From Patescibacteria group bacterium (GTDB lineage Bacteria; Patescibacteriota; Minisyncoccia; Phycocordibacterales; Phycocordibacteraceae), in assembly GCA_013815345.1 (NCBI GenBank), contig JACDGK010000001.1, forward strand, positions 3,076-67,075: a stretch of DNA of 64,000 bases, written 5' to 3'. Positions 3,056 to 61,079 of this stretch are shown here, piece by piece. The position numbers and the translations under genes are program-made. How positions within the stretch are numbered: the stretch's first letter is position 1; each line of letters opens with the position of its first letter. The notes beneath the pieces were generated by a model. It was not told the DNA's origin. It worked only from the letters and a program-made list of their open reading frames with translations, and searched no databases.

Positions 3056-3199
3056 ATGATCTTGAAAAATTGTTTCCGCGCTGCCACGGGAGTGCTCGGA
3101 CTTGCTCTCCTCGGCACCGTTGGGTTGTTTCTCTGCGCCCTCGCGCCGCTCTTGGTGAGCCGGGATGACCTGAGCGCTGCCGGCGTTCTGTGGAAATAG
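3056..3199 (+). CDS. Small hydrophobic protein (47 aa) MILKNCFRAATGVLGLALLGTVGLFLCALAPLLVSRDDLSAAGVLWK
   Basis: Strong Shine-Dalgarno GGAAAGGAGG lies 6 nt upstream of the ATG. It has a single TM-like segment and is followed by a GC-rich hairpin plus T-tract. It is below the ORF-track length cutoff. Confidence 0.4.
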   Translation: MILKNCFRAATGVLGLALLGTVGLFLCALAPLLVSRDDLSAAGVLWK

Positions 3200-3213
3200 A
3201 CTATCGCGCGAAA

Positions 3214-3249
3214 GCGCCGCGGCCCTTCGGGACCGCGGCGCTTCTTTCT
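3214..3249 (+). terminator. Rho-independent terminator (GCGCCGCGGCCC-TTCG-GGACCGCGGCGC followed by TTCTTTCT)
   Basis: GC-rich imperfect 12-bp stem, tetraloop and a T-rich tail directly after the small ORF. Confidence 0.5.
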
Positions 3250-8022: not shown

Positions 8023-10065
8023 ATGACTTCCGCACCAGCTCCGGCACCTGCCCCTGGCAACAATTCCCGCACCCCTCAAAATAATGAAGACCATACAATC
8101 TCGTCAGTGCATCCTTCTCGAAATGACAGCCGATCCCCGCGGCCGCCGATGCGCGGCGGGAGATCCGACGGCCCAGGCGGCAATCGCGGTCCGCGCGGAC
8201 CACGGCCTCCTTTCAGAAATAACGGTCCTCGACCACCCGCTTCTTCGAACGGACGCCCGGGAGGCGCACGCAGTACTAATTCATCCAGCCGTCCCGGACG
8301 CGTGAGCAGACAAATACAGCGAACGTTGCGGAGACTTCCAGCTCCCAACTCCGTCGCAAAGAAACTCGCTGATTATTTTCCTGACATCGCTCCGGACAAT
8401 GTCGTTCGTGTCATTCCCCTTGGCGGTGTCGAGGAAGTGGGACGCAACATGATTGCGGTAGAGACGCAAGGCGAGATATTTGTTTTTGACGCTGGTTTTC
8501 AATTTACCTCTGAAGACACTTCTCCCGGTGTCGACTATATTCTTCCAAATACAAAGTATCTTGAGCACAACGCTGACCGTGTAAAGGCGGTATTTATTAC
8601 GCACGGACACCTCGACCACATCGGTGCTATTCCATTTATCATGAACCGTTTCGGCAATCCACCGATTTACACGCAGAATCTTTCTGCAGTCATGATTCAG
8701 AAACGGCAAGAGGAATATCCCGACATGCCTGCACCAAATCTTGTCGTTGTCGAGCCAGGCTCAACGCACACCATTGGTAAGACCCGGGTGAAATTCTTCC
8801 CCGTCACTCACTCAATACCTGATTCGATGGGCATCGCCATCGAAACACCATATGGCAATGTCATCGCAACGGGCGACCTGAAGCTCGACCATGAAAATGG
8901 TATTCCAGTCGAACACGAGCAAAAGAAATGGGGCGAGCTTGGCGCTCAAAAGAACCTTATGTTCATTGCGGACTCAACCAATGCCGAACGCGATGGGTTC
9001 TCGATTCCCGAACGCCGTGTGACTGAGACACTCGAAGAGATCATCAAAACTGTCCAGGGTCGCCTTATCATCGGTACCTTCGCTTCGCAATTTGACCGCA
9101 TGGTGCATATCATCGAGAGCGCAGAAAAGTATGGCAAAAAGATCGTAACTGAAGGACGCTCGATAAAAACTAATCTCGAAATCGCTCAGCAAACCGGGCT
9201 TCTAAAGATCGACAAAGGCACGCTTATCAGTTCACAAGACATGGCCGACTACCCGCCGGATAAAATCGTTATTCTCGCAACGGGCGCGCAAGGTGAGGAA
9301 TTTGCAGCACTCATGCGCATCGCGACCAAACAGCACAAGTTCGTGCAGCTCACGCCCCGTGACACTATCGTGCTTTCATCCTCCGTTATCCCAGGCAACG
9401 AAATCTCCGTACAAAAACTCAAAGATAATCTGTATCGAAATGGCGTTACGCTCATTCATTACAAATCATCTGACGTGCACTCGACCGGGCATGGCAATAC
9501 AGGTGAGCTGGTCTGGATCAATAAGCAAGTAAATGCGACATTCTTCATGCCTGCCTATGGCTATTATTCTATGACTTCCTGTCATGCAAAAGCTGTGGAG
9601 CAATCAGGACGACCTCGTGAATCAATTATTCTTGCTGACAACGGCATGGTCATTGATATGATCGACGGTGAAAAGCTTTTCATTCATAAAGAGAAAGTAC
9701 CTTCTGCGCCACTCATCGTAGATGGCTTTGCTATCGGCGACATGCAGGAAGTGGTAATTCGTGATCGTCAGGCGCTTTCAAAGGATGGCATGTTCGTCAT
9801 TATCGCGACGGTGAATCTAAAGACTGGCAAACTTCGAAAGTCACCGGACATTATTTCCCGCGGATTCATTTACCTTCGTGAATCCCAAGAGCTCTTGAAC
9901 ACGGCACGACTTCTTATTAAGAAGACGGTTGAGGACTCGACGCGCAATATGAACCCCGTTGATCTCGACTTCGTAAAGAATGAGATCTCGGATGTGATGG
10001 CGGGATATCTTTTCCAAAAGACCAACAAGGCGCCGATGGTTATTCCGGTGCTGATCGGAGTGTAG
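8023..10065 (+). CDS. rnj: Ribonuclease J (metallo-beta-lactamase/beta-CASP) with a roughly 120-aa Arg/Gly/Pro/Ser-rich N-terminal extension
   Basis: HGHLDHIG motif, RVIPLGGVEEVGRNM start of the core, beta-CASP and C-terminal domain. The N-terminus PAPAPAPGNNSRTP...RGGRSDGPGGNRGPRGPRPPFRNNGPRPP is low-complexity. Confidence 0.85.
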   Translation: MTSAPAPAPAPGNNSRTPQNNEDHTISSVHPSRNDSRSPRPPMRGGRSDGPGGNRGPRGPRPPFRNNGPRPPASSNGRPGGARSTNSSSRPGRVSRQIQRTLRRLPAPNSVAKKLADYFPDIAPDNVVRVIPLGGVEEVGRNMIAVETQGEIFVFDAGFQFTSEDTSPGVDYILPNTKYLEHNADRVKAVFITHGHLDHIGAIPFIMNRFGNPPIYTQNLSAVMIQKRQEEYPDMPAPNLVVVEPGSTHTIGKTRVKFFPVTHSIPDSMGIAIETPYGNVIATGDLKLDHENGIPVEHEQKKWGELGAQKNLMFIADSTNAERDGFSIPERRVTETLEEIIKTVQGRLIIGTFASQFDRMVHIIESAEKYGKKIVTEGRSIKTNLEIAQQTGLLKIDKGTLISSQDMADYPPDKIVILATGAQGEEFAALMRIATKQHKFVQLTPRDTIVLSSSVIPGNEISVQKLKDNLYRNGVTLIHYKSSDVHSTGHGNTGELVWINKQVNATFFMPAYGYYSMTSCHAKAVEQSGRPRESIILADNGMVIDMIDGEKLFIHKEKVPSAPLIVDGFAIGDMQEVVIRDRQALSKDGMFVIIATVNLKTGKLRKSPDIISRGFIYLRESQELLNTARLLIKKTVEDSTRNMNPVDLDFVKNEISDVMAGYLFQKTNKAPMVIPVLIGV

Positions 10066-10191: not shown

Positions 10192-11064
10192 CTAGTGCGG
10201 CAGTCGGAAGTGACTTCCATTCTTCTGTATTAAATGCTCACTCTCAAGTCTTTGGATTTGTATTTTTATTTGGTCCTTCCGGTCATGACCCAACAATCTA
10301 GAAAGTTGAGCCACAGTTTGAGGACCGGAAATAAGAGCTCTGAGAATTGCGCCGCGGACTTCTCGATTTGAACCCGCGAATGTTGATTGTTTTGTATAGG
10401 TGGTGCTTTTAGTATTGTTGCGAACTCCCGAACGTTTCAGGTGAGCGCCATAGTCCATGAGCGCGGAGTACCATTCGCGGGCATTTCCTTTCGGGAGTGC
10501 TTTCGCTAAAATCGCCAGAATATCTTTATCTGCGACTTCTTTCTGATCATGAAAAAAATGATGCGTGATGACCGTACGCACGTTTGTTTCGATACATACG
10601 ACATCTAAATTGTACGCGAAAGTGGCCACTGCTCGGGCCGTATAGGGACCGACCCCTCGTAACGATTCCAGCTCCTCGACCGAGTCAGGAAGTTTTCCTT
10701 TATATTCACTTACTATCTGTTTCGCTGCTTCATGCAGCATTTTTGCGCGACGATTGTACCCAAGCCCTTGCCACTCTTTTAGGACATCCCCGAGCGATGC
10801 TTTTGCGAGGGCATGAACCGTTGGAAATTTTTTGAGAAATTCTTTATAAAACGGCTTTACTCTATCAACTTGTGTCTGCTGCAGCATCACTTCAGACACC
10901 AAAATCTTATAGGGATCCGTTGTCTTCCGCCACGGCAAATCATGTCTCCCTTCTTTCTCATAGTATTTCCAGACGATTCGCTGAAAATCTCGAATGTTGC
11001 CAGAGGATCCTTTTACCATGTTCCGAGGAGGGGCTCTCGGAGCTGGTCTGGCTTGGCCCGCCAT
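10192..11064 (-). CDS. HhH-GPD DNA glycosylase (MutY/EndoIII-like) lacking the 4Fe-4S Cys motif, with a C-terminal winged-helix-like tail
   Basis: HhH-GPD core LQQTQVDRV...LRGVGPYTARAV. Only one Cys in the region where MutY/Nth carry C-X6-C-X2-C-X5-C. Confidence 0.65.
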   Translation of the reverse strand: MAGQARPAPRAPPRNMVKGSSGNIRDFQRIVWKYYEKEGRHDLPWRKTTDPYKILVSEVMLQQTQVDRVKPFYKEFLKKFPTVHALAKASLGDVLKEWQGLGYNRRAKMLHEAAKQIVSEYKGKLPDSVEELESLRGVGPYTARAVATFAYNLDVVCIETNVRTVITHHFFHDQKEVADKDILAILAKALPKGNAREWYSALMDYGAHLKRSGVRNNTKSTTYTKQSTFAGSNREVRGAILRALISGPQTVAQLSRLLGHDRKDQIKIQIQRLESEHLIQKNGSHFRLPH

Positions 11065-11157
11065 TCTGATGGCGGCAGACCGGCGAGAGGGAGCGCGACT
11101 CTCCGCAGGAAAGAGTCGACGCGTACCCCCGCAGGAATAGGGGAAAAGATTCCTCTT

Positions 11158-25556: not shown

Positions 25557-26849
25557 TTAAATAAACGTTAGCGCCTTCCCCGCGAGTCCCGCACGGCCGG
25601 TACGACCGATACGGTGGGTATAATCTTCGTACGTAGACGGTAGATCGTAGTTGATGACATGCGAAACACCCGAGATATCGAGGCCACGAGCTGCAACATC
25701 AGTCGCGACGAGCACCTGGACATGGTCCTGTTTGAAAAGACCAAGTGCCTTCTGGCGACGACCGTGTGTTTTGTCGCCATGAATCGAGTCTGCGCGGATA
25801 CCGCGAGAACCGAGATCTTTCGCAAGACGCTCAACCCCGTGCTTCGTGCGTCCGAAAACCAATACCTTACTAAACGTAGGATCATTTTTGAGCATACCGA
25901 CGAGTATCTCGAATTTCGACTCACCGTTACCGACACGAATAACGTCCTGATCGATAGTGCGAGCTGTATCGCGGGTCTTCACTGAAACGCGCGCGGGCTT
26001 GTTGAGAAATTCACCAATAAGTCCTTCGATCTCCCGCGACAAGGTCGCTGAAAAGAAGAGCGTATGACGTTTCTTCGACATTTTCGCCATGATGAAGCGC
26101 ATGTCAGGGATGAATCCCATGTCGAGCATACGGTCAGCCTCGTCGAGGACGACGGTTTGAAATACGGAAAGCTCAAGCTCGCCACGTTCCATAAGGTCTT
26201 TCAAACGTCCCGGGGTTCCAATAACGAAATTCGGCTTACGACGTAGCACGCGGATCTGAGGCTCGATGCCTGCTCCACCCACGCAACAGACGGCATTGAT
26301 TTGGAGGCCTTTTGCAAAGCCGTAGAATTCTTGTTCGATTTGAATAGCGAGTTCTCGTGTCGGCACCATGATGAGCGCTCGTTCGTTTCGATCATTCAGC
26401 ACTTTGTCGATAAGAGGAAGCAGAAACGCTGCTGTTTTGCCCGTTCCGGTATTCGCGATACCCACGATGTCCTCCCCATCAAGCACGTGAGGGATTGATT
26501 TATCTTGGATAGGCGTCGGCGTGATGTAGCCTTTTTTCGCTACATTCTCTTTGAGACGGCCGTCCAGAGCAAAATCACTGAACTGATGTTCAGGGATAAA
26601 TACCTCCGGTGCTTCGCCCACAACTGCTTTATTAATAAGTTTTGAGAGGTCGATAGACATCTCTTGGAATCCGCGCTTGCCTTTTGGACGTGCTTGCGAA
26701 TGAGATGAAAAGCTTCCACGACTACTGTTTCCGCCGAAGCTTGAACGATTGCCGTATGAGTGTGATGAAGAACGGCCATAGCCGCTGCTTCGTCCGCCTG
26801 TTTGCGGAGCGCGACGTCCATCAGTGCGCCGTATATACGTTGTTGCCAT
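25557..26849 (-). CDS. DEAD-box ATP-dependent RNA helicase with an Arg/Gly/Ser-rich N-terminal extension
   Basis: Q motif, Walker A AxTGTGKT, PTRELA, DEAD (VLDEADRMLDMGF), SAT, ARGLD and HRIGRTGRAG. N-terminus RRTDGRRAPQTGGRSSGYGRSSSHSYGNRSSFGGNSSRG. Confidence 0.9.
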   Translation of the reverse strand: MATTYIRRTDGRRAPQTGGRSSGYGRSSSHSYGNRSSFGGNSSRGSFSSHSQARPKGKRGFQEMSIDLSKLINKAVVGEAPEVFIPEHQFSDFALDGRLKENVAKKGYITPTPIQDKSIPHVLDGEDIVGIANTGTGKTAAFLLPLIDKVLNDRNERALIMVPTRELAIQIEQEFYGFAKGLQINAVCCVGGAGIEPQIRVLRRKPNFVIGTPGRLKDLMERGELELSVFQTVVLDEADRMLDMGFIPDMRFIMAKMSKKRHTLFFSATLSREIEGLIGEFLNKPARVSVKTRDTARTIDQDVIRVGNGESKFEILVGMLKNDPTFSKVLVFGRTKHGVERLAKDLGSRGIRADSIHGDKTHGRRQKALGLFKQDHVQVLVATDVAARGLDISGVSHVINYDLPSTYEDYTHRIGRTGRAGLAGKALTFI

Positions 26850-27304
26850 TTAATTATTCTGTATGAGTTTGTGCGCAGCGTCTGTGCCCGTATGAAAAAG
26901 GCCTGTCGCGAATCCGCGCGGATTTATATAAGAAACCGAAGGAGTCAAAAAATTGCACGCCTCAGGCTTGACCGATCTCGAGAGTTTGCAGGTTCGTGTC
27001 CATTTACACGTGAACGTTGCTTTGCCACCTGGTCCTGAGCGACTCTCAAGACGATAAACCGTGGAGAACTGGTTAGCTACACAATAGCATACCTCGTTAG
27101 TTTTGCAAGCTCCTTATCAAGGAGCTAAACGTATCGACCCCCGGCTTGATAAATCAAGTCGGGGGTCAGGCTCATCCGGTGAGCGGCCGAAAGGTCAGAC
27201 GGCGGCGGCGCTGTTGTGCAGGCCGGGCACCGGGGCGGCGGCGGTCAGGTCGATGAGGATCACCTTCCCGAACCCGACTTGCGTCCGCCGCCTAGGGGAG
27301 CGGT
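26850..27304 (-). promoter_or_regulatory. Long GC-rich structured 5' leader/promoter region of the DEAD-box helicase gene (candidate regulatory RNA)
   Basis: 455 bp without a credible ORF, locally well above the window's GC content, with several hairpins (GACCCCCGGCTTGAT-AAA-TCAAGTCGGGGGTC; AGCTCCTT-ATCA-AGGAGCT; GGCGGCGG repeats). Confidence 0.3.
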
Positions 27305-27457
27305 TTATACGATAGGATTTTTTCCTTGAATGAGACGAATGAGAATCAAGATGATGGCAACCACAAGTAGAATGTGGATAAAGCCTCCAATCGTATATGA
27401 AGTTACCAGACCAAGGGCCCAAAGTATGAGCAAGATAACGGCGATCGTGATAAGCAT
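27305..27457 (-). CDS. lmo0937-family small membrane protein (50 aa) MLITIAVILLILWALGLVTSYTIGGFIHILLVVAIILILIRLIQGKNPIV
   Basis: Manual translation. The ..LIILW..G......GG.IHILLV.AII..LIRLI.G pattern matches the lmo0937 family. The listed 75-aa ORF 27195..27422 is in a different frame. Confidence 0.55.
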   Translation of the reverse strand: MLITIAVILLILWALGLVTSYTIGGFIHILLVVAIILILIRLIQGKNPIV

Positions 27458-27542
27458 AAATATAGATTTTAGTGTGTAAGGCGAGCTACGCTTCAGTAGA
27501 ATATATATACACTTACCAGTATGAAGACTTTATGAAATAGCG

Positions 27543-29336
27543 TTATTTCTGTTTGTTTCGTGCTTTGACACGCTCGCTCTCATTCAAAAACTGTTTACGC
27601 AAACGCACACTGAGTGGAGTAATCTCAAGGTATTCATCTTCTGCCATTATTTCGAGGCCGCGTTCGATAGTGAGCGTAAAAGGAGGAACAAGATTGATCG
27701 CTTCGTCGTTACCGGAAGAGCGCACGTTTGTGAGATTCTTTCCTTTCGTAGGGTTCACCATCATTTCCTCGCCCTTTGACGTATTGCCGATAACCATACC
27801 TTCATATACTTCAATGGCCGGCATAATATACATAACTCCCCGCTCTTGAAGGCCCCACAGTGCATAGCCGAGTGCCTTGCCTGGCGCCATCGAGATCATC
27901 GAGCCCACCTGACGCTTCTTGATGTCTCCTGCGTACAGCTTAAAGCCGAGCACGCGCGATGAAAGGATACCCTCCCCTTTTGTGTCGATAACGAATTGGT
28001 TGCGATACCCCAGAAGTCCGCGGGTCGGCCCTTCGAACGTAAGGCGGACGAGATCGTCGCTCTGAGTAAGGTTTTGAAGCACAAATGCTCGGGTACCGAG
28101 TCGTTCAATGATCGCACCTTGGAATTCACTTGGTGTATCAATAATCACTTCTTCGAATGGCTCAAGTTTTTTGCCTTCCTCTTCACGGATAATGACCTGC
28201 GGCTGCGAGACCTGGAGCTCGTATCCCGACCGCCGCATGTTTTCGAGAAGTATCGCAATGTGAAGTTCACCACGTCCTGATACTTTGAACGAGTCAGGGG
28301 AAACGAAGTCAATTTTGAGTCCCACGTTTACTTCAAGTTCACGTTCAAGATACTCGCGAAGTTGGCGAGAAGTGACAAATTTTCCTTCACGTCCCGCAAA
28401 AGGAGAGTTGTTCACAAGGAAGTTAAGCGTAATGGTCGGTTCGTCGATAGCGATTGCCGGAAGTGCTTCGGCATTTTGGTCGGTGGTGATCGTTTCGCCG
28501 ATGAAAATGTCCGAGAGGCCCGCAAGCAACACAATATCCCCTGCCTGTGCTTCAGCCACCTCCACACGCTCAATTCCCTTGAAAGAGAAAATCTTGGTGA
28601 GTTTTCCTGTACGGGTTTCACCATCTGGCTTTTTTACAAATACCTGCTCGCCTACATGAACAACACCCTCGTAAATGCGAGCGACAGCAAGACGACCAAG
28701 GAAATTGTCATAGCCAAGGTTAAAGGATTGGATACGAAGAGGCTGTGCAATGAGCTCAGGCGTTGCCGCAGACGCCACATGCTCAAGAATGACGTCGAGA
28801 AGCGGGGTAAGGTCTTTTCGTTCATCATCAAGGCTGCGCATTGCTACCCCCTCACGGCCTATTGAATAAACAGTGGTGAAATTCGCCTGTTCATCCGAAG
28901 CACCGAGCTCGAGAAAGAGTTCGAGCACCTGTTCCTCTGCCCAAGCAGGATTAGCGGCAGCCTTATCTATTTTATTTAAAACGACAATGGGTTTAATGCC
29001 GAGTTCCAGTGACTTTTTGAGTACAAATCGTGTTTGTGGCATCGGACCTTCTTGCGCATCAACGACGAGAAGCACAGAATCAATAGAACGAAGTACGCGT
29101 TCGACTTCAGAACCGAAATCCGCGTGGCCCGGTGTATCGACAATATTGATTTTGGTTCCTTTATATTCTATTGAAGTATTTTTGGAGTAAATGGTGATGC
29201 CGCGCTCTAGCTCGATAGAGTTCGAGTCCATGGAAATACCCTCAACCGCCGCACCTGTTTGACGCATCAAAGCATCCGTCAAGGTAGTCTTGCCGTGGTC
29301 AACGTGCGCGATAATCGCGATGTTTCGGATTTCCAT
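27543..29336 (-). CDS. typA: Translational GTPase TypA/BipA
   Basis: AHVDHGKTTL G1, DTPGHADF G3 and NKID G4. Length and domain order match BipA. Confidence 0.9.
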   Translation of the reverse strand: MEIRNIAIIAHVDHGKTTLTDALMRQTGAAVEGISMDSNSIELERGITIYSKNTSIEYKGTKINIVDTPGHADFGSEVERVLRSIDSVLLVVDAQEGPMPQTRFVLKKSLELGIKPIVVLNKIDKAAANPAWAEEQVLELFLELGASDEQANFTTVYSIGREGVAMRSLDDERKDLTPLLDVILEHVASAATPELIAQPLRIQSFNLGYDNFLGRLAVARIYEGVVHVGEQVFVKKPDGETRTGKLTKIFSFKGIERVEVAEAQAGDIVLLAGLSDIFIGETITTDQNAEALPAIAIDEPTITLNFLVNNSPFAGREGKFVTSRQLREYLERELEVNVGLKIDFVSPDSFKVSGRGELHIAILLENMRRSGYELQVSQPQVIIREEEGKKLEPFEEVIIDTPSEFQGAIIERLGTRAFVLQNLTQSDDLVRLTFEGPTRGLLGYRNQFVIDTKGEGILSSRVLGFKLYAGDIKKRQVGSMISMAPGKALGYALWGLQERGVMYIMPAIEVYEGMVIGNTSKGEEMMVNPTKGKNLTNVRSSGNDEAINLVPPFTLTIERGLEIMAEDEYLEITPLSVRLRKQFLNESERVKARNKQK

Positions 29337-59237: not shown

Positions 59238-61079
59238 CTAAGCTTCAACCTTGCGGAAACGGAACACAAACTCACGGCCAGAATCCCACCCGCTGCCAGG
59301 CTCCGCCCAACTGCGGTCGAGCCACAAACCGCCGTCATACCGGCGCAGGCGGAAGACGCTCGGGTCGCCATCGCGAGCCGCAATTTGCTTCATACCAATA
59401 TGTACGTATTCTCTTAAGGGTTGGTCTTTATATTTGAGACGATAGTTAGGTCCTGTATCTGGGGGACAGAGTTCCAGTCCGAGGGCTTCCGCTCGTTCAT
59501 AAATCTGATCAGTAGTAGCGTTTGTCTTAAATCCAAGATCGGCGACAGTGAGGCGAACAAGCTTCGCTTCTTCGCGATTTTCGGAAACGGTAAAATCAGG
59601 ATTCCCCATCATTGATTTTGCATAATCAGAGATGTTGATTCCAGCCGATTCCATTTCGGCAATGAGTTGCTCTTTTGACTTTCCTCCTATTTCCACGCTA
59701 TCTCTCCTAATTTTCTTTTCGGGAAATGAGGTATAGACATGTTCTAGATGTTCCGACAATTTTTGAAAAATGCCCGGTTCGAGTTGTCCGACATACGCTT
59801 TAGTTTTTTCAGTTATTTCGCTCGGCACATGAGCGATCTCGTCTCTGGTACATTCAAATATGACAAGCATATCTTCCTCAGTATTTCTCCCTTCCCGAAG
59901 TTCGTCGATACGAGGGTCTTTATCATATCCGAAGCCCTCGATAGTTCCGTTGATTTCGTAAAGAAAGGTTAAGTCGTCTTTAGTAAACGGTTCCTCTTTT
60001 TCACGTTTTTGGTCAAGAGCGGTCAATATTTTCATGTCATTACTCTTCTTGCGATATGAATCAGCTTCGCCACCAAAATCTTGAAGTTTTGCATCAAGTG
60101 CTTCTTGCATGATCGGCTCTACTCCTTGGTGTGGCAAAATACCTCGCACTTCGCCAATCTTGTTCTCTCCATTCATACGGATAGCGAGGCGGGGTTGGGT
60201 CGGCTCGCCTGATGAATCGTTAGTGTAATACACATAAAAATCGCCTGATTCTATCTGCGTCTCGGCCGTCGAACGTCCGGCAGTACACCAGCCAGTGCCC
60301 TTGCCTTCTAGAGATTCAAATAATTGCTCTGCATCACCATTTCTTCCTTGCTGATATTTTTTCCATTCACCCCTGACTTCTTCACGACCTTCCATTGAGG
60401 CTGCGAGAGATTTTGAAATGAGTTCAGCATAAAGAGTTGGAAACTTCTTAGAGAACGCTTCTTTGATTTCTGGTTCCCTGAGGTGCTTGTTATCCTCTTT
60501 TACTTTTAAGTAAATATCGGCAATTTGGGCAAGCGGTTCGCGGTAGATATCCGGATATGGAGCGACTGTTGTACTAGTTCGCTTTTTGAATTCACCTCGT
60601 TCTTTGTCGAATTGGGAAAGCTTGGTGACCTGGTTCCAAGCGTAGTATTTAAACCAAGCAGGATATACCGCATCATTTGAAGAAAGATAGTCAATCCAGG
60701 CATCAAGCGAGTGCTTCTGGTCTTCGATCGCCACGCTCATCATCTGCTCGCGGACGTTTTCTGGAATTTCTTCTACCGCTTGACCTCGCTCACGAGCAAT
60801 ACGTTGCTGGAGCTCGAAATATGATTCTGGAAAGTTCTCTTTCTTGATGATGAATGCGTCGTATATCTTATTCCGAAACATGTCTAGGTTTCGTTCACGA
60901 ACTCGCTCGTCTGGATTGAGAAAAACATTCTCCAAGCGATCCATATACGCCTCAACGCGTTCCGCAGGATCATTTGGTATTTTTTCTTCGGTCTGTCTCT
61001 CTTCTCGCTCCACGGCTCGATTTACCTCAGGAGAGGTTTGGAGTTCTGGGTTTTTGAGATGAAGCGGATGTTTTTCCAT
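59238..61079 (-). CDS. Large hypothetical cytoplasmic protein (613 aa), no recognised domain
   Basis: Long charged ORF (Glu/Lys/Arg-rich), no TM helix, no nucleotide-binding or nuclease motifs found by eye. Confidence 0.6.
   Translation of the reverse strand: MEKHPLHLKNPELQTSPEVNRAVEREERQTEEKIPNDPAERVEAYMDRLENVFLNPDERVRERNLDMFRNKIYDAFIIKKENFPESYFELQQRIARERGQAVEEIPENVREQMMSVAIEDQKHSLDAWIDYLSSNDAVYPAWFKYYAWNQVTKLSQFDKERGEFKKRTSTTVAPYPDIYREPLAQIADIYLKVKEDNKHLREPEIKEAFSKKFPTLYAELISKSLAASMEGREEVRGEWKKYQQGRNGDAEQLFESLEGKGTGWCTAGRSTAETQIESGDFYVYYTNDSSGEPTQPRLAIRMNGENKIGEVRGILPHQGVEPIMQEALDAKLQDFGGEADSYRKKSNDMKILTALDQKREKEEPFTKDDLTFLYEINGTIEGFGYDKDPRIDELREGRNTEEDMLVIFECTRDEIAHVPSEITEKTKAYVGQLEPGIFQKLSEHLEHVYTSFPEKKIRRDSVEIGGKSKEQLIAEMESAGINISDYAKSMMGNPDFTVSENREEAKLVRLTVADLGFKTNATTDQIYERAEALGLELCPPDTGPNYRLKYKDQPLREYVHIGMKQIAARDGDPSVFRLRRYDGGLWLDRSWAEPGSGWDSGREFVFRFRKVEA

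Follow-up and report, generated by a model that had tools for sequence, protein, structure and literature searches.

A conserved structured leader and an apparently genome-specific GC-rich block upstream of a DEAD-box RNA helicase gene in a Patescibacteria group bacterium

The 455-bp interval at 26850-27304 of the window, the 64,000-nt stretch of contig JACDGK010000001.1 from a Patescibacteria group bacterium that we analysed, lies directly upstream of a gene for a DEAD-box RNA helicase. It is the entire spacer between the stop codon of a DUF5670 gene (27305) and the helicase ATG (26849), and since both of these genes are on the minus strand, the interval has to be read on that strand. Our analysis revealed that the interval is a composite of two unrelated elements, a GC-rich block and a helicase leader. 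The leader represents a new RNA family within a functional kind already on record, that of structured leaders of DEAD-box helicase genes, and its core is predicted to form a three-way junction. The explanation of the whole interval that we consider best, and reasonably likely to be right, is a conserved regulatory leader, which would sense the helicase, together with a GC-rich insert specific to this genome and located upstream of the helicase promoter. An earlier note, made from the letters of the window, had described the interval as one 455-bp GC-rich leader. This description had to be given up, since the 230 nt beside the helicase gene have an ordinary GC content (~0.50) and fold no better than shuffled sequences (z -0.36).

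A leader motif tied to the helicase gene

We first fetched 17 related loci through the helicase, and loci of the closest helicases (80-85% identity) were added from the protein database; where they have to be told apart, the loci carry L numbers. A covariance model, R1, was built from nine near relatives only, and the other sequences were realigned to this model. Alignments made with MAFFT only (A2 and A3) put the 5' strand and the segment called B below in the wrong place, and they were not used. R1 gave exactly one match in each of 27 loci. Model R2 gave 30 matches in 293,716 nt (both strands), all of them directly upstream of a helicase gene and none elsewhere, and it additionally matched L047, L048, and L049. 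The conserved core is the only match of R2 in the window:

26956-27079, minus strand: conserved leader core, three-way junction (R2, 91.9 bits, E 8e-26)

Metagenome contigs were also scanned with an unbiased, gene-blind pattern, GTTTN{3,4}GTCTTGAGN{35,65}AAACWCTCRAGA. The helicase gene was directly downstream on the same strand in 13 of the 15 matches, and in the other two the contig breaks off after a few codons of a helicase-like N terminus. The 32 distinct motif sequences all lie on the same strand directly upstream of a helicase gene, indicating that the motif recurs at a fixed position.

When the whole window was searched against Rfam 15 at the gathering thresholds, only tRNA-Gln was reported, and ARAGORN likewise detected only tRNA-Gln, far away from the interval. 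With the limit relaxed to E <= 10 in 26600-27700, the best match was mir-138 (27.1 bits against a threshold of 50), accompanied by four weaker chance matches; nothing fell on the conserved core, and 14 related loci likewise gave no match. The covariance-model scan that the earlier note had proposed thus matched no family in 26850-27304, either at gathering or at E <= 10. The same note had seen a resemblance to helix 8 of the signal recognition particle (SRP) RNA, which was not borne out: no SRP-clan family matched even at E <= 10, and the GGTCAGG repeats sit in the non-conserved insert. Our literature search found no published description of the motif.

Promoter of the helicase gene

The features that bear on the start of the helicase transcript and on its translation are the following:

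27081-27108, minus strand: sigma-70-type promoter, with the -35 box TTGCAA (27103-27108), a 16-nt spacer ending in TGC (extended -10), and the -10 box TATTGT (27081-27086)
26850-26870, minus strand: A/C-rich stretch AAACUCAUACAGAAUAAUUAA without a Shine-Dalgarno (SD) sequence, unpaired in the minimum free energy (MFE) fold

A promoter of the form TTGnnn-16/17-TGn-(T/C)AnnnT is present in all 30 of the 30 motif-bearing loci, where 1-4 nt separate its end from the beginning of the RNA model, and the sequence further upstream is unrelated among the loci. A consensus promoter scan missed the helicase promoter because only 8/12 positions match. From the position of this conserved sequence, transcription would start at about 27074-27078, which would give a 5' untranslated region (UTR) of about 225 nt. 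As far as the sequence tells, the gene has the deaD-type arrangement, that is, a long 5' UTR with a promoter far upstream in front of a DEAD-box helicase gene. The earlier comparison with the leader of Escherichia coli deaD was sound to this extent: a long, structured, and conserved helicase leader exists, but it is the promoter-proximal half of the interval (~27074-26850) and not the GC-rich hairpins. The cold-shock or autoregulatory role that the note had suggested would be plausible, on grounds of analogy.

A 225-nt UTR is exceptional here, since the genes of this genome are mostly without an SD sequence, and a -10 box often precedes their ATG by a few nt. Among the 40 long open reading frames (ORFs) of the window, only seven have even a 4-mer SD match within 20 nt upstream, and the relatives of the helicase leader all lack an SD sequence as well. 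The sequence of the window suggests that leaderless or very-short-leader mRNAs may be widespread in this genome. Several ORFs have a -10-like TAnnnT at 6-8 nt before the ATG (e.g. the minus-strand starts 39886, 37813, 48338, and 17056).

Just upstream of the helicase promoter, L007 (3500-3560), L014 (3490-3545), and also L020 have a long hairpin with the conserved loop GTCTCAGCGAGCGGGAC, which may be a terminator or another small element.

Predicted three-way junction

The predicted elements of the leader, read in the direction of the transcript, are listed below:

ACC 27071-27073, G 27069, UCUC 27064-27067, and GGUUU 27056-27060, minus strand: 5' strand of helix P1
AAACU 26983-26987, internal loop CUC 26980-26982, GAGA 26976-26979, C 26974, and GGU 26971-26973, minus strand: 3' strand of helix P1
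27032-27052, minus strand: P2 hairpin, formed by A (GUCUUGAG, 27045-27052), a loop (27040-27044), and B (CUCAGGAC, 27032-27039)
26989-27031, minus strand: P3, variable hairpin
26975-26983, minus strand: segment C (UCUCGAGAU), also complementary to A
26871-26955, minus strand: distal leader, containing the CUCCUUCGG region and a second block
~26871-26920, minus strand: second block, in near relatives only, GCGCG..UUCGCGACA..variable..CACAGAC/UACGCGCGCA (also written GCGCG..UCGCGACA..variable..CACAGAUACGCGCGCA)

P1 is a long interrupted closing helix, in which ACC/ACAAC, CUC, and GUUU pair with AAAC, GAG(A), and GGU/GUUGU, and P2 joins the invariant A to B of the general form CUCRRGAC. Several lines of evidence carry this structure. 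First, the junction was obtained in 14 of 23 single-sequence MFE folds, and RNAalifold independently gave P1b, P1c, P2, and P3 from a 30-sequence alignment, so that the comparative folding across relatives suggested in the earlier note did recover a three-way junction, in the promoter-proximal leader. Second, in alignment A7, which was fitted to the model, the shuffle and slide controls were favourable and are no formal significance test: standard pairs filled 92.7% of the cells, compared with 85.6% in column shuffles (none of 500 reached the observed value), and the proportion fell to 25-51% when the partners were slid by 1-3 columns. Third, nine pairs in A7 were changed on both sides. P3 covaries at all five of its pairs (CG/GC, AU/GC/UA, GC/AU/UA/CG), and in P1a/b, where pairing reaches 83%, four pairs have two-sided changes. 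P1c (GUUU:AAAC) is invariant, and P2 is 100% paired with variation solely as U-A/U-G and G-C/G-U alternation, so that these two helices show one-sided changes or none. P2 is without true compensatory changes because A never varies. Since three lineages insert an extra small helix into its loop, we nevertheless argue that P2 is a real hairpin. The outer helix P1a/b is tentative.

A 5' hairpin, P0 (AACC:GGUU), was also tried and rejected; it is only 82% paired and missing in the L023 group, and GUUU pairs better with AAAC. The second block of the distal leader may form a hairpin closed by GCGCG:CGCGC according to the fold prediction, and RNAalifold on the nine near relatives gave five predicted pairs for it with no covariation.

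The repeated segments could in principle act as DNA, with three near-palindromes GTCTYGAGAC binding a dimeric transcription factor and the RNA pairings as a by-product. TCTCGAGA is indeed a perfect DNA palindrome, and there are three occurrences within 80 bp just downstream of the promoter. However, B drifts to the non-palindromic CTCAGG, CTCAAG, and CTCGGG, all of which still pair with A as RNA (U-A/U-G), A itself (TCTTGAGA) is palindromic only when G-U pairs are allowed, and the A-to-B spacing varies by 11-13 bp through the extra-helix insertion. Neither the palindromes nor their spacing are therefore maintained as in an operator array. The covariation of P3 at 5/5 pairs and the long-range pairing of GUUU with AAAC and of CUC with GAG also speak for RNA, and we regard a DNA operator as very improbable.

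The leader is not uniform among helicase loci. In the type-2 variant leaders of L005 (3821-3927), L008 (3818-3923), and L045 (~1035-1130), the A:B hairpin is replaced, and the C element (GAGACC) pairs with a downstream GGAUCUC. L043 (~1110-1190) has a minimised leader of ~90 nt. The distant helicase loci L010-L013 are without the motif; L012 (250-300) and L013 (3920-3990) share a different leader element, CCAGUCnGUCUUACUUU...AGACUGG, and L011 and L013 retain only the 5' GUAUCUCAUUGGUUUUC.

Mimicry of 23S rRNA was tried as another explanation of the leader and rejected. Local alignment to the E. coli 16S and 23S rRNAs gave a non-significant 16-mer (5 of 200 shuffles were as good), and R2 scored at most 6 bits on rrnH. 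The segment 26957-26972 (minus strand) is identical to E. coli 23S 1505-1521 at 15 of 16 positions (TCAAGCCTGAGGCGTG), and this part of the leader is not conserved among relatives.

A competing fold and how it might act

Besides supplying GAG(A) to P1, segment C (UCUCGAGAC) has a complement in A over up to 11 bp, and the A:C helix of 11 pairs is 95.6% paired across the sequences. When we folded the sequences under constraints, the junction was more stable in 16 of 28 and the A:C fold in 12 of 28, and the two were within 3 kcal/mol of each other in 14 of 28. For the window sequence, the energies were -34.9 kcal/mol for A:C and -29.6 kcal/mol for the junction. In the type-2 variants, which have no A, the complementary downstream partner of C is GGAUCUC instead. 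C thus has two mutually exclusive partners in both designs, and this is the main argument for a switch. The calculated folds suggest that the RNA may adopt an A:C fold that is mutually exclusive with the junction, breaking P1 and P2 and freeing the 5' end.

By analogy with the systems compared below, we infer that the element is a cis-acting regulatory leader, and the kind that appears most probable to us is a sensor of helicase activity. In the mechanism that we propose, the junction would fold co-transcriptionally and keep the 5' end in a helix, with an mRNA that is stable and open to translation. The helicase that the gene encodes, perhaps brought in through its RG-rich N-terminal tail, would then shift the balance from the junction to the A:C fold, which would expose the 5' end to decay. 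The lowered stability or translation of its own mRNA would then provide negative feedback. 5'-end-dependent mRNA decay would be a plausible read-out, since the transcript would have its first nucleotides paired in P1a. In this specific form, a bistable sensor for homeostatic control by the encoded DEAD-box helicase, the proposal is a tentative one and stands below even chances in our estimate.

Several observations weigh against the proposed regulatory leader. First, A is invariant, so that neither A:B nor A:C has a two-sided change, and both pairings could reflect other conservation, such as a protein-binding site. Second, P1a and P1b are only 83% paired with register shifts between lineages, and cognate 5' and 3' tails pair with a mean of -10.5 kcal/mol compared with -8.4 kcal/mol for non-cognate tails, with several lineages reversed. 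Third, the conserved leader as a whole shows the same lack of folding stability beyond shuffles as given above (z -0.36). Fourth, ~100 nt separate the junction from the AUG, and we found nothing that would connect it with initiation or termination, as there is neither a terminator-like site nor an SD sequence. Fifth, the presumed transcription start is placed by promoter conservation only. Sixth, the junction is not indispensable, because the leaders of L043, L045, L005, L008, and L010-L013 are reduced or different. Finally, as regards the insert, its hairpins have no U tracts behind them, and its role as a terminator is putative.

The invariant nucleotides also allow for a site at which another trans-acting factor binds, such as an RNA-binding protein, a ribonuclease, or a riboswitch ligand, with A, B, and C as repeated protein-binding half-sites. 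They cluster at a multi-helix junction and an internal loop (GUUU/AAAC, the loop CUC, and GUCUUGAG), as is typical of ligand- or protein-binding RNAs, and (G)UCUYGAGAC is common to A, B, and C. On the other hand, the motif is strictly tied one-to-one to a single gene family with no other target in any locus, and there is no recognisable expression platform: the leader has neither a terminator-like site on the minus strand nor an SD sequence, with which a riboswitch could work. A metabolite that controls only an RNA helicase would lack precedent, and we know of none. We consider such a factor unlikely.

DEAD-box helicases are classic cold-induced proteins, and two near-isoenergetic alternative folds are conserved, which would suit an RNA thermosensor of the cold-shock type, whose two folds are populated by temperature as in cspA and which does not need the helicase protein. 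The source samples of the loci include groundwater and soil metagenomes according to the record names. However, nothing sequesters an SD sequence or the AUG. There is no SD sequence, the MFE fold leaves the 20 nt before the AUG unpaired, neither alternative fold includes these nucleotides, and the AUG region is ~100 nt from the switch. The leader has no likeness to known thermometers or cspA leaders in Rfam, and the energy difference between the folds ranges from -11 to +6 kcal/mol among orthologues, which would be odd for a calibrated thermometer. We thus have little expectation that temperature alone sets the fold, and a sensor of the helicase itself remains the reading of the leader that we prefer.

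The GC-rich insert

The GC-rich block occupies the part of the interval next to DUF5670:

27109-27304: GC-rich, four-hairpin block (~190 bp), between the DUF5670 stop and the helicase -35 box
27223-27241/27285-27303, 27176-27188/27221-27233, 27136-27150/27153-27167, and 27108-27115/27119-27126 (plus-strand coordinates): arms of its hairpins

The GC content is 0.64 in 27100-27299 and reaches 0.73 in 120-nt windows, compared with a mean of 0.474 (sd 0.057) for the whole window. The much higher GC content that the earlier note had ascribed to the whole interval is thus real, but confined to ~27109-27304, with ~0.50 in the remainder. The hairpins that it had named are also present, namely GACCCCCGGCTTGAT/ATCAAGTCGGGGGTC (15-nt arms, 93% complementary) and AGCTCCTT/AAGGAGCT (8-nt arms, 100% complementary), and we found further ones, including one with the arms GGCGGCGG/CCGCCGCC. 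The whole 455 nt fold better than every shuffle (minus strand, z -3.8; plus strand, z -4.5), and the 203 nt of 27108-27310 have z -5.9 and -5.4 on the two strands.

BLASTN and a MAFFT alignment revealed homology to relatives only at the DUF5670 gene and at 26960-27112, and none for 27113-27304. In the same comparisons, the block was missing from L001, L002, L003, and L009, and it was likewise missing from the closest relatives L035, L037, L038, and L042 (80-85% helicase identity). In L001, the distance from the DUF5670 stop to the conserved block is 13 nt, so that the window has ~190 nt extra. No second copy of the insert was found in the 64-kb window by self-BLAST or in ~300 kb of related loci. 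Searches for a source were also negative: blastn against phage and plasmid collections gave nothing except one 41-nt chance match in Nonomuraea, an exact-pattern scan of viral contigs gave no match, and BLASTN and tblastx against all fetched loci (tblastx also against the rest of the window) gave only low-complexity noise. Relatives differ in what separates typA/DUF5670 from the helicase promoter: this variable spacer is empty or holds a canonical intrinsic terminator (L038 and L042) or assorted small ORFs. By these sequence comparisons, the GC-rich block appears to be an insertion specific to this genome in a variable spacer. The GC-rich hairpins are outside the conserved leader, because they lie upstream of a promoter conserved in 30/30 loci and are missing from all relatives, and the block could be transcribed only through read-through from DUF5670.

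If the insert has any effect, the likeliest would be to block or terminate transcription coming from typA and DUF5670. A transcriptional barrier is the simplest functional guess, since L038 and L042 have ordinary terminators at the same position, and the insert may equally be functionless. No terminator-like site was found on the minus strand of 27109-27304, where the stems are followed by GAUACGUUUAG and UGCAAAAC and not by U tracts. This genome does use canonical terminators, as a textbook one was seen in another GC-rich island of the window (3060-3245, plus strand), in which an apparent small membrane-protein ORF (MILKNCFRAATGVLGLALLG...) is followed by an intrinsic terminator (GCGCCGCGGCCCTTCGGGACCGCGGCGC and a T tract). 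Further GC peaks (0.67-0.71) at 8085-8280, 11013-11150, and 59249-59400 lie within or at the ends of long ORFs, and none of the three has a sequence relation to the insert. The GC-rich core is flanked by the arms of a 20-nt inverted repeat (27117-27136/27310-27329), which are 75% complementary; the conserved 3' end of DUF5670 forms one of them, and the insert contains the other. The repeat may be due to chance or be a trace of the origin of the insert.

The strong fold raises the question of whether the block itself is functional, as a stand-alone small RNA (sRNA) or as a long extension of the leader by read-through from DUF5670. Its multi-hairpin fold is exceptionally stable on both strands (z -5.9 and -5.4), and there is no canonical terminator between DUF5670 and the helicase gene here, so that read-through transcripts are possible. 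However, the equal structure on both strands points to DNA palindromes rather than to a strand-specific RNA, the promoter that all relatives have kept is located downstream of the block, and the block itself is conserved in none of the ~35 related loci, the nearest included. The independent structured sRNA that the earlier note had offered as an alternative found no backing in an Rfam match, in conservation, in promoter- or terminator-like signals flanking the block, or in a second copy. A function of this kind is quite unlikely in our view.

The composition of 27195-27304 could instead come from decayed foreign or lost coding DNA, either the 3' end of a high-GC gene or the remnant of a small ORF of the spacer. 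GC in this part has a period of three (0.57/0.92/0.69), and the values come in the order GC2/GC3/GC1, as they typically do in coding sequence with high GC. Strong hairpins come after an open frame, ...VGFGKVILIDLTAAAPVPGLHNSAAAV*, and the spacer is a hot spot with different small ORFs in relatives. Yet neither a protein search nor tblastn, blastn, or tblastx found a homologue in plasmids, phages, the related loci, or the window. The GC3-rich frame, as a 41-aa peptide, had no homologue in the protein database, and the best tblastn match of the insert frame to plasmids had E = 9. The period-3 signal is also weak, covering ~37 codons that are partly GCC repeats (rough P ~0.01, our own estimate), and folding 5-6 sd above shuffles would be abnormal for coding fragments. 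A coding origin is accordingly a doubtful explanation. The absence of a credible ORF from the interval, which the earlier note had stated, was confirmed, since Pfam gave no match for the short ORFs of the spacer (70 aa on the plus strand, 75 aa on the minus strand, and others) and the 41-aa test peptide has no homologue.

The preferred explanation of the whole interval, a conserved leader next to a genome-specific insert, holds a practical lesson. Its most striking feature, hairpins with z of about -6, is not conserved, and the functional candidate is thermodynamically plain and visible only by comparison.

Genes around the interval

The gene order, on the minus strand throughout, is typA, DUF5670, and then the helicase gene:

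27543-29336, minus strand: typA/bipA
27305-27457, minus strand: gene for a 50-aa DUF5670 (lmo0937-like) membrane protein (Pfam PF18919, E 2.5e-15), whose stop codon is the upper boundary of the interval
25557-26849, minus strand: DEAD-box RNA helicase gene, 430 aa (Pfam DEAD 5e-47, Helicase_C 1e-30)

The DUF5670 gene was likewise called in the Logan contig. The protein database holds 7975 homologues of the helicase, and the nearest one outside its own cluster is 82% identical. The helicase and DUF5670 proteins of the window were otherwise found only in their own contig, in two assemblies, and no closer relative was found. By affinity, the helicase belongs to Patescibacteria (the candidate phyla radiation, CPR), Parcubacteria/Paceibacterota, near Kaiserbacteria-like metagenome-assembled genomes. 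Its N-terminal tail, at about residues 8-60, is of low complexity and rich in Arg, Gly, and Ser.

In the region for residues 1-60 (26670-26849, minus strand), the initial MATTYIRR is kept across orthologues even as nucleotides, and the L007/L014 lineage has a longer, GC-rich tail. The order typA, (DUF5670), variable spacer, and helicase is shared across Parcubacteria (L035, L038, L045, L047, L048, and the window), and the synteny extends beyond the helicase to two small proteins of unassigned family and then a DsbA/thioredoxin-like protein.

Relation to known systems

The regulation of DEAD-box helicases themselves is poorly understood, and gene regulation is almost unknown in Patescibacteria, which cannot be cultured alone. 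A regulatory leader as proposed here would be among the few cis-regulatory RNAs described for Patescibacteria (CPR), and these reduced genomes may have very few RNA helicases besides the one that it would control. The motif is compact (~120 nt), has two competing folds, and is associated one-to-one with the helicase, which would make it a tractable system for helicase-sensing feedback.

The insert resembles terminators and palindromes of the repetitive extragenic palindromic (REP) and bacterial interspersed mosaic element (BIME) type in having stable GC-rich hairpins between convergently read or co-directional genes. It differs from them in that it has no U tracts, consists of four unlike hairpins with no repeated unit, and is present in a single copy in 64 kb.

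The leader shares with cspA-type thermosensors the alternative long-range folds in a 5' UTR and a gene class linked to cold adaptation, whereas it has no cold-box sequence and no Rfam match, and its initiation region lies outside the predicted folds. Stabiliser stem-loops at the 5' end, such as those of the ompA 5' UTR and the Bacillus subtilis aprE leader, protect mRNAs from 5'-end-dependent RNases. In a similar way, the junction fold pairs the first nucleotides of the presumed transcript through P1a, and the A:C fold would release them. In contrast, the known stabilisers are simple terminal hairpins, which to our knowledge do not switch, and the pairing of the 5' end is the least supported helix here (83% paired).

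We know of no sequence or structural relationship between the present leader and the 5' UTR of E. coli deaD, the two being compared by description, from very distant phyla and with lengths fourfold apart, and we know of no curated Rfam model of the deaD UTR. The likeness to deaD/csdA lies in a UTR that is unusually long for the genome and precedes a DEAD-box helicase gene, and a helicase that remodels its own leader would follow the logic that we favour here. The difference lies in the leader itself, which is 225 nt with a compact conserved three-way junction here and 838 nt in E. coli. DeaD is under negative autoregulation through its 838-nt 5' UTR, which works by way of Rho-dependent termination and the stability of the mRNA (Ojha and Jain 2020, PMC7430678). 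No defined conserved motif is known in that UTR, and multiple regions contribute to the feedback (PMC7430678).

The DEAD element of the plant helicase genes DRH1/RH46 senses helicase activity and controls alternative splicing (Burgardt et al., bioRxiv 10.64898/2026.01.23.701338). Its opening by the encoded helicase leads to negative feedback, and the specificity comes from a disordered RGG/RG region (bioRxiv 10.64898/2026.01.23.701338). As in plants, a conserved RNA structure is present here in the helicase's own transcript, and the helicase also has an RG/S-rich disordered tail, which is N-terminal here and C-terminal in plants. The plant element is eukaryotic, intronic, based on splicing, and unrelated in sequence, whereas mRNA decay or translation would be required here. 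If the helicase-sensing proposal is true, no RNA motif by which a bacterial DEAD-box helicase regulates itself would have been defined before this leader, and the plant DEAD element would be its counterpart by convergence.

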